A stretch of 64,000 nucleotides of DNA from Escherichia coli (lineage in GTDB: Bacteria; Pseudomonadota; Gammaproteobacteria; Enterobacterales; Enterobacteriaceae). The DNA is taken from NCBI RefSeq assembly GCF_044324875.1, contig NZ_CP172185.1; one strand, written 5' to 3'. A model generated the notes under the pieces. That model did not search any database and was not told the DNA's origin. It saw nothing but the letters and a program-made list of their open reading frames with translations. The position numbers and the translations under genes are program-made. Shown piece after piece: positions 7,422-13,185 of this stretch (within the stretch, counting starts at the first letter, position 1; each line of letters begins with the position of its first letter).

Positions 7422-8838
7422 CTATCTGCATGGTCCCGAAACCATTGAGGTGGAAAACGGTGCCCGCCCGGTTAAAACGGTGAAATCTGCCGTTATTGGC
7501 CTGATTGGTACCGCCCCGATGGGGGACGTCAATACGCTGGTACAGTGCCTGTCTGAGAAAGACGCAGCGGCATTTGGCAGCCAGTTCACCGGCTTTACCA
7601 TTCCGCAGGCGCTGGATGCGATTTATGACCATGGTGCAGGCACCGTTCTGGTCATTAACGTCCTCGACCCGGCGAAACATAAAACGGCGATCCAGGGTGA
7701 AGTGGTTACCTTTGACAAATCGACAGGGCAGGCCAGACTTGCGCATCCGGTTGTCGCTAATGTGGTGGTGAAAAACAGTGAAGGCAGCACCACCCACACG
7801 GCGAACACGGACTACCGTGTTGATGCGCAGGCGGGTGTGCTCACGAACCTGGGCAAGGCTATTGAGGCCGGTGGCAGCGTGAAGGTGAGCTATGAGTACG
7901 CGGACCCGTCGAAGGTGACTGCGGCGGACATCATCGGCGGGGTGAACAGCGCCGGAAACCGAACCGGCATGAAGCTGCTTAACGACAGCTTCAACCTGTA
8001 CGGCTATTTTGCCAAAATTCTGATTGCGCCGGTGTTCTGCACCCAGAAGAGTGTAGCAGTTGAGCTTATCGCCATGACAGAGAAGCTGGGCGCGGTAACC
8101 TACATTGATGCGCCTGTCGGTACCACCTTTGCACAGGCTCTGGCAGGTCGTGGCCCGGAAGGCACCATTAACTTCAATACCAGCTCCGACCGCGTCCGTC
8201 TGTGCTATCCGCATGTGAAGGTATATGACCCGGTGACAAACACGGAGCGTCTGGAGCCGCTCAGCCAGCGTGCAGCAGGTCTGCGTGCCAGAGTCGATCT
8301 GGACAAGGGCTACTGGTGGTCATCCTCCAATCAGGAGATTCTGGGGATCACCGGCGTGGAGCGCCAGCTGTCCGCGATGATTGATGACCCGCAGAGTGAG
8401 GTGAACCTGCTTAACGAACAGGGGATCACCACGGTATTCAGCAGTTACGGCAGCGGCCTTCGTCTGTGGGGTAACCGGACGGCAGCATGGCCAACGGTCA
8501 CCCATATGCGTAACTTTGAGAACGTTCGCCGCACCGGTGATGTGATCAACGAGTCCATTCGTTATTTCAGCCAGCAGTACATCGACATGCCGATTACTCA
8601 GGCGCTGATTGATGCACTGACGGAGTCGGTCAACGCCTACGGTCGCAAAATGACTGGTGATGGTGCGGTACTGGGCTTCCGTTGCTGGTTTGATCCGGCC
8701 CGCAATCCGGAGACGGAGCTGGCCGCCGGGCACCTGTTGCTGAGCTACAAATATACGCCACCACCGCCGCTGGAGCGACTGACGTTTGAGACTGAGATCA
8801 CCTCGGAATACCTGTTAACCCTGAAAGGGGGCAACTGA
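7411..8838 (+). CDS. Contractile tail sheath protein
   Basis: 475 aa immediately upstream of tube gene; myovirus sheath size and position. Confidence 0.9.
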   Translation: MAANYLHGPETIEVENGARPVKTVKSAVIGLIGTAPMGDVNTLVQCLSEKDAAAFGSQFTGFTIPQALDAIYDHGAGTVLVINVLDPAKHKTAIQGEVVTFDKSTGQARLAHPVVANVVVKNSEGSTTHTANTDYRVDAQAGVLTNLGKAIEAGGSVKVSYEYADPSKVTAADIIGGVNSAGNRTGMKLLNDSFNLYGYFAKILIAPVFCTQKSVAVELIAMTEKLGAVTYIDAPVGTTFAQALAGRGPEGTINFNTSSDRVRLCYPHVKVYDPVTNTERLEPLSQRAAGLRARVDLDKGYWWSSSNQEILGITGVERQLSAMIDDPQSEVNLLNEQGITTVFSSYGSGLRLWGNRTAAWPTVTHMRNFENVRRTGDVINESIRYFSQQYIDMPITQALIDALTESVNAYGRKMTGDGAVLGFRCWFDPARNPETELAAGHLLLSYKYTPPPPLERLTFETEITSEYLLTLKGGN

Positions 8839-9359
8839 TGTCAAAGATTGAGATAAACCGCATCACGAATGCCAACATCTATCTGGATGGTACTAACCTG
8901 CTGGGACGGGCTGAGGAAGTTAAACTCCCCGATGTCTCCATGATTATGCAGGAACACAAGGCGCTGGGGATGGTGGGTAAGGTGGAACTCCCGGCTGGTT
9001 TTGACAAACTGGAAGGCGAAATCAAATGGAACAGCTTTTACCGCGATGCGATGCTGTCTGCCGCGAACCCGTACAGGTCGCTGGCACTGCAGTGTCGTTC
9101 CAGCGTCCAGCGCTACAGCTCGCAGGGGCTGATTGACGAAATCCCGCTGGTCACCTTCCTGACGATTATGTTCAAGAAGAACCCGCTGGGGACGTTCAAA
9201 CAGCACGAGAACGCCGAGTTCTCCAGTAGCTTCACATGCACGTATATCAGACAGGTACTGGATGGTGAAGAGCTGCTGCAACTGGACTATCTGGCCAACA
9301 TCTTCCGGGTCGGCGGTGTTGATCAACTGACTGACTACCGTATCAATATCGGGGGCTGA
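8838..9359 (+). CDS. Tail tube protein
   Basis: 173 aa, ATGA overlap with sheath. Confidence 0.85.
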   Translation: MSKIEINRITNANIYLDGTNLLGRAEEVKLPDVSMIMQEHKALGMVGKVELPAGFDKLEGEIKWNSFYRDAMLSAANPYRSLALQCRSSVQRYSSQGLIDEIPLVTFLTIMFKKNPLGTFKQHENAEFSSSFTCTYIRQVLDGEELLQLDYLANIFRVGGVDQLTDYRINIGG

Positions 9360-9361
9360 CG

Positions 9362-9643
9362 GTGAGTGTTGAACTGACGGATAAAGGAGGACGATGTGCG
9401 GCACTGGGCATGTCAAATGGTACGTGGTTTACCCTCCTTGATATTCCGGGGGTGGAAACCCTTTTTAATACCCGTAAAACCAATGACCCGATTGACTGCA
9501 CACGTTCAAAGGCCCGCAGACTGGCGGATTTGATTGAAGCATGGGAGCCTCCCGACCACTGGTTCTCCGGCACCGGCAAATCTGAGGGAAAGACGCTTCT
9601 CATCGCTTTCCTGCGTAACTGCAAGGGGTTTCGCACTTGCTGA
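9362..9643 (+). CDS. Hypothetical protein, possible moron between tube and chaperone genes (coding status uncertain)
   Basis: 93-aa ORF from GTG 9362 (or 77 aa from ATG 9410); no family recognised; followed by terminator-like hairpin. Confidence 0.3.
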   Translation: MSVELTDKGGRCAALGMSNGTWFTLLDIPGVETLFNTRKTNDPIDCTRSKARRLADLIEAWEPPDHWFSGTGKSEGKTLLIAFLRNCKGFRTC

Positions 9644-9649
9644 CATCAC

Positions 9650-9675
9650 AGGGGCTCCGGCCCCTTCTTCTTAAT
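9650..9675 (+). terminator. Rho-independent terminator-like hairpin
   Basis: AGGGGC-TCCG-GCCCCT stem-loop followed by TCTTCTT. Confidence 0.5.
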
Positions 9676-9740
9676 CTCCTTTAATATCCGTCACGCGCTT
9701 CTCCCGACATACTGCCCTGAACTTACACAGGAGCACAATC

Positions 9741-10076
9741 ATGTCACAGACCCCATCCGATACTTTTAAATTGTCTTATCCCTTCACCACTGCTGCAGGC
9801 ACCAGAATTGAGCTGGTTGAACTGAAACGCCTGACGGTAAAAGACCTGAAGCAGGTGCGCAAAATCAGCAAAAACCCGGCAGACTGGGACGAACCGCTGA
9901 TTGCCCGCAGTACTGGTCTTCTCCCGGAAGATCTCGACAATATGGATCTGGCTGATTACCTGCAGTTACAGAAACGATTTCAGCTCATCACGGGGATGGG
10001 TGAGAGCGACAAAGGCGCTGACGCAGGCGCAGGGGCTGCTGGCGAGATGGTTCCGGTTTCAGCCGGGGGAGATTGA
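9741..10076 (+). CDS. Tail assembly chaperone (P2 gpE / lambda G analogue)
   Basis: 111 aa between tube and tape measure genes; RBS AGGAG before ATG. Confidence 0.65.
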   Translation: MSQTPSDTFKLSYPFTTAAGTRIELVELKRLTVKDLKQVRKISKNPADWDEPLIARSTGLLPEDLDNMDLADYLQLQKRFQLITGMGESDKGADAGAGAAGEMVPVSAGGD

Positions 10077-10158
10077 TGCCCTCGATACTGACGATCTGGA
10101 GATGTGGCTGGAGCAGGCTGAAGAGCAAATAAAAAGCGAGTACGGCGACAAATCATAG
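9901..10158 (+). other. Overlapping open frame (+1 relative to chaperone); candidate programmed-frameshift extension
   Basis: Frame open 9901-10158 with no ATG; G5 run at 10062-10070 just before the chaperone stop. Confidence 0.4.
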
Positions 10159-10163
10159 TACAG

Positions 10164-10190
10164 ACAGCCGCCAGTAGCGGCTGTTCTGCG
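10164..10190 (+). terminator. Hairpin ACAGCCGC-CAGTA-GCGGCTGT after chaperone region
   Basis: 8-bp perfect stem, weakly U-rich tail. Confidence 0.3.
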
Positions 10191-10233
10191 TTATCCCCTC
10201 ACGTCTTTTCACCTTCCCCGGAGGTTAACCACT

Positions 10234-13185
10234 ATGTCGGGACAGTTTTCAGTCGGCGTTGTTATCGGCGGGATGATTGGCAGCACATTCCGTTCTGCAA
10301 TGAGCGGTACCCGCCGTGCGCTTGATTCCCTGAGCGATACCTCACGCCGCCTGCAGGAACGTCAGAACGCTTTAACCCGTGCAACAGAACGTTATGGTCA
10401 ACTGGGCTCTTCCCGGATGCAGCATCTCAACAGCGAGCTGCTGCGGGTAAGCCGCACCATGGAGCAAATTGAGCGCCAGCAGCGCCGTCTGTCAGCGGCA
10501 TCAGCCACCAGTGATGCGCTGAAAGCTAACCGCATGGCGCTGTATGGTCAGGGGATTGAAGCGTATGGCATGGCACAGACTGTTTATCATACGGTTTCCC
10601 CTGCCGTTCAGCAGTCCATGTCTTTTCAGGACAAAATGATTGATATGTCGATCACCGCAAAATATGACAATAAAACGCGGGATGCACTTGCCGGACAGAT
10701 AAAAGGCTGGGCGCAAAAATACAATCAGTATCAGGATGAACTGCAGGAGGCGGTGGGTTCGCTCATCAGCGACAATATTGATAACTTGTCAGATATCGGT
10801 TTTCTGATGCCGGATATTGCCCGCGCGGCAACGGCAACACGCACGTCATCTCAGGACTGGGCAAAAGTGGCCGCAGTCTGGCAAAACTCCCTGAAAGGTG
10901 CGGCCAGAGATTTTAGTGCCGTCCAGAATATTATGGCTTATGCCGGTGACCAGGGGTCATTTGAAATCCCGGATCAGGTCAAGTGGATGCAGTCCCTGGC
11001 CCCAATGATGGCGGGTATTGCCAGTGGAAAAGAGGCTGTTGCTGAAATCGGGGCCAGTCTCCAGATAGCAAAAATCGGTGCGGGCTCCACCGACGAAGCA
11101 GCCAATAATTTTAAAAACTTTCTTACCAAAATTTTTGCCCGCGATACTCAGAAACAGTTTGCTGATCTGGGTATTGATTTGCAGGGTTCTGTTGCGAGTT
11201 ATAAGGCTGCGGGGATCTCTCCGATTGAAGGGATGTTGAGTGTTATAGAACGTTACCTCAATGCCAAAAGCCCCGAAGCGCTGGCCGGCTTCAAATCCGC
11301 CATGAAAATAAAGAATGATACGGCAAGAGATGAGGCACTTCAGGCTCTGGCGAAAAACTTTGGTCTGGGCGATATGTTCGCGGATATGCAGGTCATGGCA
11401 TTTATCCGCCCGATGCTGGCCAACATGGACAGATATCGCGAGATCCGTGCCGGTGCTCTCAGGGCTGCGGATAACGATTTGCTTGCCAGTGCTTACGATC
11501 AGCGGCTGAAATCTCCCCTTGAAGCCACTAAAGCGCTTATGGTCAGCAGTCGCGATCTGGCTATTACGCTGGGCGATCAGCTCGCCCCCTCTTTTATTTC
11601 TCTGACTCAGGAGCTGATCCCACTCATTCAGGGGGCAAAACACTGGGTGGCGACTCACCCGCAATTTGTCAGTGGGGCTTTTAAGCTCATCAGTGCGCTC
11701 CTTGCGATTAAGATAGCGACTGTTGGTCTCAAACTGGGGCTGAATCTCCTTATTTCCCCCTTTGTGAACGTCTGGAAAACTGCTGTTTTACTCCGGACCA
11801 ACTGGCATCGACTGACTACCGCACTAGGAGAAGGTGGCAAATTACGCTGGCTTGTCACTGGATTTAGCCGACTGACCAGCGGAGGACTGAAACTCAGCAA
11901 AGTTCTGGCGGGCAGCCTCGTTCGCGGTTTTATGAGCGCTGCACGTGCCGTTCTCTGGATTGGGCGAGCGCTGATGATGAATCCCATCGGTCTCGTTATC
12001 ACCGCTGTCGCGGCAGCAGCTTACCTTATCTACCGCAACTGGGGGACAGTCAGTGGCTGGTTTAAACAGCGCTGGGCTGACATTCAGGAAGCCTTTAACG
12101 GCGGTATCGCGGGAACTGGTAAGCTGCTGATTAACTGGTCGCCGGCAGGGCTGCTCTATAAAGCCTTTGCGGCTGCGCTGAAATATTTCGGCGTTGCTCT
12201 GCCGGCAAAGTTCACCGACTTCGGTGGCCATCTTGTCGACGGTCTGATTAACGGTATCAAAAACAAATGGGGGTCGCTCAAATCCAGTGTAACCGGAATG
12301 GGTGACAGCATCAGTAGCTGGTTTAAACAGTGCTGGTCTGACATTCAGGAGGCCTTTAACGGCGGTATCGCGGGAACTGGTAAGCTGCTGATTAACTGGT
12401 CGCCGGCAGGTCTGCTCTATAAAGCCTTTGCAGCTGCGCTGAAATATCTTGGTGTTGATCTGCCGGCAAAGTTCACCGACTTCGGTGGCCATCTTGTCGA
12501 CGGTCTGATTAACGGTATCAAAAACAAATGGGAGTCGCTCAAATCCAGTGTAACCGGAATGGGTGACAGCATCAGTGGCTGGTTCAGTGAAAAGCTGGGT
12601 ATTCATTCGCCGAGCCGCGTGTTTATGGGCTTTGGTGACAATATCGCGCAGGGGGCCGCCATTGGCCTGCAGCGGAGCACTCCGATTGCAGCTCTGGCCG
12701 GGCAGCGAATGGCCAGTGAACTGCTCCCCAGAATGCCCGTGAGCATTCAGGGGCCAGAAATACGGGATAACACTTCAGGTGTTCGCTTCAGTATGCCGTT
12801 GCCCGATATCAACGGGTTTATGTCGTCTGCTAAAAATGCGATCGGATCCGTAATCAATAGTTTGTCTTCCATGCCCGCTATTCCGATCTCCACCCGGGCA
12901 TCGACTTTACCAGGTCAACGTCTGGCAAATGAGATGACACCGGATGTTCCCCGTATCCCCTCGCCTGAAATCCTGGCTGCCGGATATTCAGGCCGTGGTG
13001 CAGCTGCAACCGGCGGTGGAACGTCTGGTGGTATCCAGGTCAGCTTTAATCCTCAGTTTTTCCTCAATGGCAGGGAAACCACAGCGCCTGCAGGACTGAC
13101 TGGTGCCCTGAATATGAGTCTGCATGAGCTGGAAAAAATGCTGGAGCGTCTGCTGGCTCAGAAACAACGTAAGGAGTACCGCTGA
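10234..13185 (+). CDS. Tail tape measure protein
   Basis: 983 aa, N-terminal coiled-coil-like region, hydrophobic core segments, position between chaperone and baseplate genes. Confidence 0.9.
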   Translation: MSGQFSVGVVIGGMIGSTFRSAMSGTRRALDSLSDTSRRLQERQNALTRATERYGQLGSSRMQHLNSELLRVSRTMEQIERQQRRLSAASATSDALKANRMALYGQGIEAYGMAQTVYHTVSPAVQQSMSFQDKMIDMSITAKYDNKTRDALAGQIKGWAQKYNQYQDELQEAVGSLISDNIDNLSDIGFLMPDIARAATATRTSSQDWAKVAAVWQNSLKGAARDFSAVQNIMAYAGDQGSFEIPDQVKWMQSLAPMMAGIASGKEAVAEIGASLQIAKIGAGSTDEAANNFKNFLTKIFARDTQKQFADLGIDLQGSVASYKAAGISPIEGMLSVIERYLNAKSPEALAGFKSAMKIKNDTARDEALQALAKNFGLGDMFADMQVMAFIRPMLANMDRYREIRAGALRAADNDLLASAYDQRLKSPLEATKALMVSSRDLAITLGDQLAPSFISLTQELIPLIQGAKHWVATHPQFVSGAFKLISALLAIKIATVGLKLGLNLLISPFVNVWKTAVLLRTNWHRLTTALGEGGKLRWLVTGFSRLTSGGLKLSKVLAGSLVRGFMSAARAVLWIGRALMMNPIGLVITAVAAAAYLIYRNWGTVSGWFKQRWADIQEAFNGGIAGTGKLLINWSPAGLLYKAFAAALKYFGVALPAKFTDFGGHLVDGLINGIKNKWGSLKSSVTGMGDSISSWFKQCWSDIQEAFNGGIAGTGKLLINWSPAGLLYKAFAAALKYLGVDLPAKFTDFGGHLVDGLINGIKNKWESLKSSVTGMGDSISGWFSEKLGIHSPSRVFMGFGDNIAQGAAIGLQRSTPIAALAGQRMASELLPRMPVSIQGPEIRDNTSGVRFSMPLPDINGFMSSAKNAIGSVINSLSSMPAIPISTRASTLPGQRLANEMTPDVPRIPSPEILAAGYSGRGAAATGGGTSGGIQVSFNPQFFLNGRETTAPAGLTGALNMSLHELEKMLERLLAQKQRKEYR
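12058..12582 (+). repeat. Direct tandem duplication, 2 x 261 bp (87 aa), inside tape measure gene
   Basis: Copies at about 12058-12318 and 12319-12579 differ at about 11 positions. Confidence 0.9.

Follow-up and report, generated by a model that had tools for sequence, protein, structure and literature searches.

Within the tail module of a BcepMu-like transposable (Mu-like) prophage of Escherichia coli, the gene of the major tail tube protein ends at position 9359 and that of the tail assembly chaperone starts at position 9741, leaving a gap of 381 nt between them. Positions refer to the window, i.e., the whole stretch of 64,000 nt analyzed here (contig NZ_CP172185.1, assembly GCF_044324875.1). 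The sole long open reading frame (ORF) on the + strand of this gap, in the following called ORF93, extends from a GTG start codon to a TGA stop codon (9362-9643, 93 codons) and includes an in-frame ATG at 9410, which offers an alternative product of 77 amino acids (aa); a GC-rich hairpin and a T-rich tract follow. Gap, reading frame, internal ATG, hairpin and tract had all been located in an original prediction, and their coordinates were confirmed when the sequence was read again. The same prediction had considered ORF93 to be of no recognisable family, possibly noncoding and preceded by a weak ribosome-binding site, and had proposed profile searches, structure prediction and a survey of related prophages as checks, which were carried out. 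ORF93 is a further member of a known, uncharacterised protein family (Pfam DUF7739 / PHROG 1239) and is already annotated in RefSeq as hypothetical, its site in a late operon being unusual. Confidence in the identity and anatomy of the gene, comprising coding status, start codon, family, insertion history and ancestry of the hairpin, is high. The features of the locus, all on the + strand, are:

8838-9359, + strand: major tail tube gene (PHROG 55, E 1.6e-60; RefSeq 'phage major tail tube protein'; 67% identical to BcepMu gp40)
9351-9355, + strand: Shine-Dalgarno (SD)-like GGGGG, 6 nt before GTG 9362 (anti-SD duplex -8.6 kcal/mol)
9362-9643, + strand: ORF93, accessory gene of DUF7739 / PHROG 1239 (RefSeq WP_021537392.1 'hypothetical protein'; soluble alpha/beta product, isoelectric point (pI) 8.45, net charge +2)
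9650-9665, + strand: GC-rich hairpin AGGGGC-UCCG-GCCCCU, terminator- or attenuator-like (6 bp, tetraloop; -12.8 kcal/mol)
9666-9675, + strand: interrupted T-rich tract TCTTCTTAAT, directly 3' of the hairpin
9676-9740, + strand: leader of the chaperone gene with SD ACAGGAGCA, well conserved in alignments of ORF-bearing relatives
9741-10076, + strand: tail assembly chaperone gene (PHROG 166, E 4.6e-32; RefSeq 'phage tail assembly protein'; Pfam Phage_TAC_7 in relatives)

Coding status and family of ORF93

All residues of the ORF93 translation (1-93) aligned with positions 1-96 of the 96-position profile of PHROG 1239 (E 1.3e-47), and Pfam DUF7739 was matched weakly (E 3.7e-5, residues 12-65), so that a catalogued family can be assigned. 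A precomputed match to PF24881 is carried by a cluster representative 98% identical to ORF93, and eight of the 47 aligned relatives match DUF7739 at E<=1e-3, the best of them at 7.5e-19. A phmmer search of 1.84 billion cluster representatives yielded 75 homologues at E <= 1e-3, a set that consists of representatives at 50% clustering. Most of them comprise 91-100 aa and align from residue 1 to the end with identities down to 27%, the identity range of the family being 27-98%. Across the 47-member alignment the family presents itself as a single domain of about 90-100 aa with a conserved N-terminus M-[ST]-V-E, the motifs NGTWF, TNDP, WxPP..W and F..CxGF, and the conserved residues N19, W67, F83, C87, G89 and F90. 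Long multi-repeat 'homologues' (P0043, P0064, P0065 and others) were discarded as spurious, only a short NGTW..PG or PDHWF motif being matched. Two proteins in which part of Gp37 or of the tube is joined to ORF93 (P0018, P0032) look like deletion, frameshift or assembly chimeras of the same prophage region and not like real fusions.

The ratio of nonsynonymous to synonymous substitution rates (dN/dS) of ORF93 was 0.08-0.20 over dS up to ~0.8, compared with 0-0.04 for the adjacent tube gene, and the 93-codon frame was open in each of seven copies examined (7/7), some of them down to 87% DNA identity. With a full-length profile match, a family of homologues and signs of purifying selection, 9362-9643 goes well beyond a chance frame and is evidently a genuine protein-coding gene under purifying selection, contrary to the suspicion that it might be noncoding. 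The GC content at third codon positions (GC3) amounts to 54% in ORF93, 67-70% in the sheath and tube genes and 55% in the chaperone and tape-measure genes. As a sign of foreign origin GC3 is ambiguous: the value lies below that of sheath and tube, yet equals that of the chaperone and tape-measure genes.

Translation start

The last codons of the tube gene, ATC GGG GGC TGA, supply the SD-like GGGGG (9351-9355) of ORF93 at normal spacing. Its anti-SD pairing of -8.6 kcal/mol is comparable with that of genes nearby, which extends from -6.3 to -10.7 kcal/mol (sheath -9.5, tube -10.7, chaperone -6.6), and the site is not weak. At ATG 9410 pairing was essentially absent (-3.0 kcal/mol). Because the N-terminal M-[ST]-V-E is conserved family-wide, GTG 9362 and not ATG 9410 is taken as the start; of the two start candidates proposed earlier, the 93-aa form was thereby retained, whereas the 77-aa form was rejected, because it lacks an SD and because the whole family conserves the first 16 residues of the longer form.

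The stop codon of the tube gene (TGA, 9357-9359) ends 2 nt before GTG 9362, tube stop and ORF93 start overlap as ATGA in the relative L020, and in Photorhabdus (L023) a GGAGG is located 11 nt upstream of the ATG start of the homologue. It is therefore plausible that translation of ORF93 is coupled to that of the tube gene.

Inside ORF93 there is a second, strong SD, AAGGAGG at 9384-9390 (-11.6 kcal/mol). Behind it come an ATG (9394) and a GTG (9396), both out of frame, the latter opening a 45-aa ORF to 9533. As a start site it was rejected, since it is unconserved in KP12 and the 45-aa product is without homologues; probably it is a by-product of the D-K-G-G codons.

Insertion into the tail operon

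Phage PhiKM, classified as Bcepmuvirus, is 99.5% identical to the prophage over a 1.5-kb segment, and an identical copy in strain AR_0085 possesses DDE transposase, Gam, Mor, lysis, head and tail genes. The tube-to-chaperone segment including ORF93 was detected in 640 of 5,426 complete E. coli genomes (~12%), among them strains of sequence type 131 (ST131), with up to three copies per genome. An account of ST131 'tailocin' regions describes prophage regions of these strains and leaves the ORF93 gene unmentioned (PMC9205054).

Between tube and chaperone genes ORF93 is present in E. coli, Klebsiella phage KP12, a metagenomic relative (72% aa identity) and Photorhabdus (65%). It is missing at this junction in BcepMu, phiE255, Ralstonia YO107_2, Salmonella SARB27 and S.Kent and Pseudomonas Bise, whose tube proteins are 52-77% identical and whose chaperone gene begins 5-140 nt after the tube gene; tblastn of these ORF-less phage records retrieved no ORF93 homologue anywhere in them. 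Among 124 phage records with a homologous tube gene, only PhiKM, KP12 and Phi06_2974 B carry an ORF93 homologue. The survey of related prophages proposed as a check thus gave a divided picture, with the gene kept in E. coli, KP12, L020 and Photorhabdus and absent from the BcepMu, phiE255, Ralstonia, Salmonella and Pseudomonas relatives. As some relatives have the gene and others, although both flanking genes are retained, do not, ORF93 is evidently a lineage-specific insertion, since then stably inherited within Enterobacterales.

A scan of the + strand from 7602 to 9741 for sigma-70-like sites gave none at threshold. By eye, a weak promoter-like pair TTGATC-16 nt-TATCAA can be read at 9319-9346 inside the tube gene; with a match of 8 of 12 positions it is indistinguishable from chance. 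These results bear on the suggestion that ORF93 occupies a typical moron position. Classical morons such as HK97 gene 15 and lambda lom/bor come with a promoter and a terminator of their own, and the prophage expresses them. ORF93 resembles them as an extra gene between conserved adjacent structural genes, found in some relatives only and located upstream of a conserved terminator-like hairpin, and to this extent the suggestion was supported. It differs from them in that no promoter of its own was found, its start abuts the tube stop and the hairpin downstream predates the insertion. Because neither a promoter nor a terminator of its own was found, ORF93 departs from the classical definition and is better termed an accessory gene embedded in a late operon than an autonomous moron; it is an ordinary hitch-hiker gene and not a novel type of element.

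The hairpin behind the tube gene

The hairpin (9650-9665) starts 6 nt after the stop codon of ORF93. Its stem comprises 6 bp, five of them G-C, its folding energy of -12.8 kcal/mol corresponds to z -3.1 against dinucleotide shuffles, and the U-run that follows is interrupted (UCUUCUUAAU). As a pattern alone such a structure is within chance, 14 terminator-like patterns being found in 10 kb compared with 8.8 +/- 3.0 expected, and the argument for a terminator-like element is one of positional conservation: an equivalent hairpin at the tube-chaperone junction in eight related phages is beyond chance. All junctions examined (8/8) fold as tetraloop hairpins of 6-8 bp with -11.8 to -16.5 kcal/mol, and KP12, L020 and Photorhabdus share the stem of the window without change. 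In phages without ORF93 the stem-loop stands directly after the tube gene:

BcepMu: GGCCCGC-ttcg-GCGGGCC, then TTTTTTAAT
Ralstonia YO107_2: GCCCAC-ttcg-GTGGGC, then ATTTTTCGTTTCT
Salmonella, two records: TTCGGGGC-tgcg/tacg-GCCCCGAA, then TTTAA..

The GGGGC/GCCCC stem of the window equals the Salmonella core, and the stems of BcepMu and Ralstonia differ in sequence. The trailing ..TTAATCT of the window tract resembles the tract of BcepMu, in which the U-run is canonical (UUUUUUAAU); in Photorhabdus the hairpin is followed by TTTCTTCTTTAAT. Like the window, the BcepMu gp40-gp41 junction has a GC-rich tetraloop hairpin ahead of the chaperone gene, and the T-run behind the stem-loop ends in TTAAT. 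However, the hairpin of BcepMu, Ralstonia and Salmonella abuts the tube stop, whereas in the window a 282-nt gene lies between them and the T-tract is interrupted. Homologues of ORF93 in Sf6, HK75 and CUS-3 are without such a hairpin, and the next gene begins there within a few nt. An Rfam scan of 8500-10500 matched no RNA family.

Because relatives without ORF93 carry an equivalent hairpin and T-run straight after the tube stop, the hairpin is an ancestral post-tube element, older than ORF93 and not the terminator of this gene. In the enterobacterial branch of the BcepMu-like phages, the insertion of ORF93 took place exactly behind the tube stop and ahead of the pre-existing hairpin. Functionally, we infer that the hairpin may act as a partial terminator or 3' stabiliser, which would hold sheath/tube transcripts above those of the downstream genes.

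The 75-nt leader between hairpin and chaperone start (9666-9740) is well conserved in ORF-bearing relatives including Photorhabdus (CCCCTTTAATATC...ATACTG...AACTTACA.AGGAG). This conservation exceeds the expectation for a neutral spacer, and no promoter-like site in it passed the scan.

Members of the family in other phages

Other members of DUF7739 / PHROG 1239 (Shigella phage Sf6 gene 22, Escherichia phage HK75 gp27 and the proteins of pHCM2-type phage-plasmids) share length (~93 aa), motifs and N-terminus with ORF93, and at 27-45% identity the same predicted fold is found (Foldseek TM 0.8-0.9). Whereas ORF93 resides in a late tail operon right after the tube gene, these members occupy early accessory regions (left operon near int, nin-like) of unrelated temperate phages, P22-like and HK97-like ones among them. 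The neighbours of Sf6 gene 22, from a podovirus, are a DUF2737 gene and an ead/Ea22-like gene; abc2 (anti-RecBCD) lies four genes before it, and a Lar-like restriction-alleviation gene follows two genes further on. HK75 gp27, from an HK97-like siphovirus, and the gene of the podovirus CUS-3 are found in the same left-operon region near int. In Edwardsiella phage EPP-1 the homologue is located between rdgC and int, followed by an HNH endonuclease, in a Cronobacter prophage between replication genes and terminase beside DUF551, and in a further prophage between repressor and integrase. In addition, about 100 non-mobilizable plasmids of 93-117 kb carry a homologue; from their size and a remark on pHCM2 in the Sf6 record they are taken as phage-plasmids. 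Direct neighbours differ in every context (tube; HK97 gp37-like; 363-aa PHROG 10705; HNH endonuclease; DUF551). Because the family occurs in podoviruses, siphoviruses and myoviruses alike, its distribution indicates that the ORF93 product is not a component of the contractile tail.

Two further members are mentioned for completeness. A metagenomic protein of 187 aa (P0082; L033 4001-4564) combines an N-terminal DUF7739-like domain with a C-terminal YopX domain (Pfam E 2e-12), and its locus is a phage early region with Dam, dUTPase and antirepressor. The homologue gp123 of Yersinia phage fHe-Yen8-01 (92.5 kb; L008 / L029) is annotated as 'particle associated protein', a label that is not discriminating, as in this phage it is also given to terminase, several methyltransferases and dozens of small early-region genes.

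Predicted structure

Structure prediction with AlphaFold2 and the 47-sequence alignment gave a confident model (predicted local distance difference test, pLDDT, 91.6; predicted TM score, pTM, 0.82) with the order beta-beta-alpha-(loop)-alpha-alpha-beta, soluble, globular and with no long hydrophobic segment. Foldseek against AFDB50 retrieved family members labelled DUF7739 and, at lower confidence, a 102-aa 'SMI1/KNR4 family protein' (E 1e-4) and a barstar-domain protein (E 7e-3); among viral models, a fold search of BFVD yielded no informative match. The predicted fold resembles that of small inhibitor and immunity proteins such as DMP12 and CdiI, with moderate scores and without sequence signal. 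Compared were Neisseria DMP12 (3w1o), Burkholderia CdiI-E479 (5j4a), E. coli YfbM (1ryl), SMI1/KNR4 (SUKH) and barstar-like folds, with none of which ORF93 has a detectable sequence relationship. A Pfam scan of the 47 members recovered no family besides DUF7739 and hence no membership in an immunity family, so that the resemblance is one of fold level only. Judged by these moderate scores, small proteins that bind and block another protein may form the recurring theme among the folds.

In contrast to CdiI and SUKH immunity proteins, no toxin gene stands alongside ORF93, and a toxin-immunity pair was rejected, there being no neighbour conserved across contexts.

Proposed role and alternative explanations

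The best overall explanation, which we hold to be somewhat more probable than all others together, is that ORF93 is a captured DUF7739 / PHROG 1239 accessory gene with a possible inhibitor as product. Enterobacterial BcepMu-like prophages captured it behind the tube stop, ahead of the terminator-like hairpin by which sheath/tube and chaperone/tape-measure genes are divided. Because no promoter of its own was detected, transcription together with sheath and tube from the late promoter is most likely, and the inserted gene would now share the high-expression side of the hairpin. Translation would start at GTG 9362 via the SD in the last tube codons and would probably be coupled to that of the tube. 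The small soluble alpha/beta product, presumably cytoplasmic, might then bind a protein of the host or of a rival element and inhibit it stoichiometrically, in counter-defence or host modulation, like the products of other small genes in phage accessory regions. This inhibitor function is our best guess, but a tentative one that is rather doubtful when taken by itself.

Several observations weigh against this explanation. Counter-defence proteins are not usually made late, except where they have a late action or travel into the next cell, and the T-tract behind the hairpin is interrupted in the window and degraded in L020 (TGTCGTTAGT). The charge of family members ranges from -10 to +6, which argues against one shared electrostatic mechanism. 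No conserved partner gene and no recognised toxin was found beside family members across the contexts compared, and searches of NCBIfam, PADLOC and PDB sequences with ORF93 and the family profile gave no matches. Nothing relevant was found in the literature on DUF7739, PF24881, phrog_1239, WP_021537392, HCM2.0097c, hkaH and fHe-Yen8-01, nor was any experimental or curated functional annotation found for a member of DUF7739 / PHROG 1239.

Among the alternatives, a moron for lysogenic conversion or superinfection exclusion, expressed from the repressed prophage to the benefit of the host, is unlikely, though it fares better than those that follow. HK97 gp15, encoded in a tail operon, is an example of such an exclusion moron. 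A lineage-specific insertion in a tail operon, the high frequency of the prophage in E. coli including ST131 strains, and the weak promoter-like pair readable in the tube gene (9319-9346) would all suit such a gene. However, no promoter-like site reached threshold on the + strand of 7602-9741, the start lies 2 nt after the tube stop with no terminator between ORF93 and the upstream genes, and the soluble globular model is unlike membrane exclusion proteins; moreover, homologues in other phages belong to early lytic operons and not to prophage-expressed cassettes.

Slightly less likely still is a lineage-specific tail accessory protein, with a part in structure or assembly alongside tube, sheath or chaperone, which would agree with the stable retention at the tube-chaperone junction across Enterobacterales, down to 65% aa identity, and with a placement suited to translational coupling with the tube. 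Against this, close relatives whose tube proteins are 67-77% identical form the same tail although they lack ORF93, the homologues of podoviruses, siphoviruses and phage-plasmids sit in early regions well away from any tail genes, and the dN/dS of ORF93 is several-fold above that of the tube gene (0.08-0.20 vs 0-0.04).

It was also considered that ORF93 could have been relocated from an early region to the late tube operon as a shield, produced in step with the tube and masking tube or chaperone from pattern-recognition defences of the host, or as an inhibitor loaded into the virion to act on arrival in the next cell. According to a recent report, tail tube and tail assembly chaperone proteins are sensed by Avs-type STAND NTPases (bioRxiv 10.64898/2026.01.04.697583), and the sole and weak hint at association with the virion is the 'particle associated' label in fHe-Yen8-01. 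This relocation is quite improbable; if true, it would introduce a new class of late-expressed counter-defence factors.

Even less probable is a DNA mimic like Neisseria DMP12, which would occupy the DNA-binding site of HU or of another DNA-binding protein. DMP12 acts via a DNA-like negative surface (PMC3643605), whereas ORF93 has a net charge of +2 and a pI of 8.45, and sequence identity to DMP12 is 6%; the reading was rejected because ORF93 is not acidic and the charge of the family (-10 to +6) is variable. Finally, a noncoding spacer, with ORF93 as a chance open frame or an antisense ORF of 97 aa (9343-9636) on the functional strand, might be argued from the GTG start and from a GC3 below that of sheath and tube, but it is rejected by conservation and practically discounted, as full-length profile matches, a family of 27-98% identity and purifying selection all pertain to the ORF93 frame, its GC3 is that of the chaperone and tape-measure genes, and neither the antisense ORF nor overlapping ORFs of 45 and 46 aa have a PHROG match.

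With regard to the captured accessory gene, the value of the present analysis is mainly one of annotation: the start codon is fixed, and the 'gap' in the tail module turns out to be a conserved gene. In BcepMu-like phages the hairpin marks a conserved border of the sheath/tube unit and is not part of the inserted gene. Members of DUF7739 / PHROG 1239 are common among temperate enterobacterial phages and phage-plasmids, and the relocation from early to late regions together with the inhibitor-like fold makes ORF93 a reasonable, not urgent, candidate for counter-defence screens.

Further observations on the prophage

A GpE-like ORF (9901-10158) overlaps the end of the chaperone gene in the +1 frame relative to 9741-10076, not in the -1 frame. 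A chaperone-GpE fusion would require a +1 or -2 shift, for which a run of five G at 10065-10069 (GCC GGG GGA GAT TGA), two codons before the chaperone stop, is a candidate slip site; RefSeq annotates both ORFs separately.

Within the tape-measure gene (10234-13185, 983 aa), a 261-nt unit is duplicated in tandem at 12050-12584 (2.0 copies, 95% identical), and related prophages encode a tape measure of 822 aa. This suggests a length polymorphism able to alter tail length.

The right end of the prophage was located at ~21,650, beyond which the E. coli chromosome continues with features including lhr, mepH, sodB, purR and ydhP. Inside this end (~19800-21650) a serine recombinase/invertase-like gene (20874-21572, + strand) is opposed by tail-fibre/assembly ORFs (19805-20901, - strand), an arrangement resembling the invertible G segment of Mu.

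In strain AR_0085 (L032, NZ_CP029741.1 4180000-4226000), the prophage that is identical over the 1.5-kb region sits between the halves of a P2-like prophage, flanked on one side by P2-type head/lysis genes ending in a truncated lysB pseudogene and lysC and on the opposite side by P2-type baseplate/tail genes. Apparently, a transposable phage has here jumped into a different prophage.
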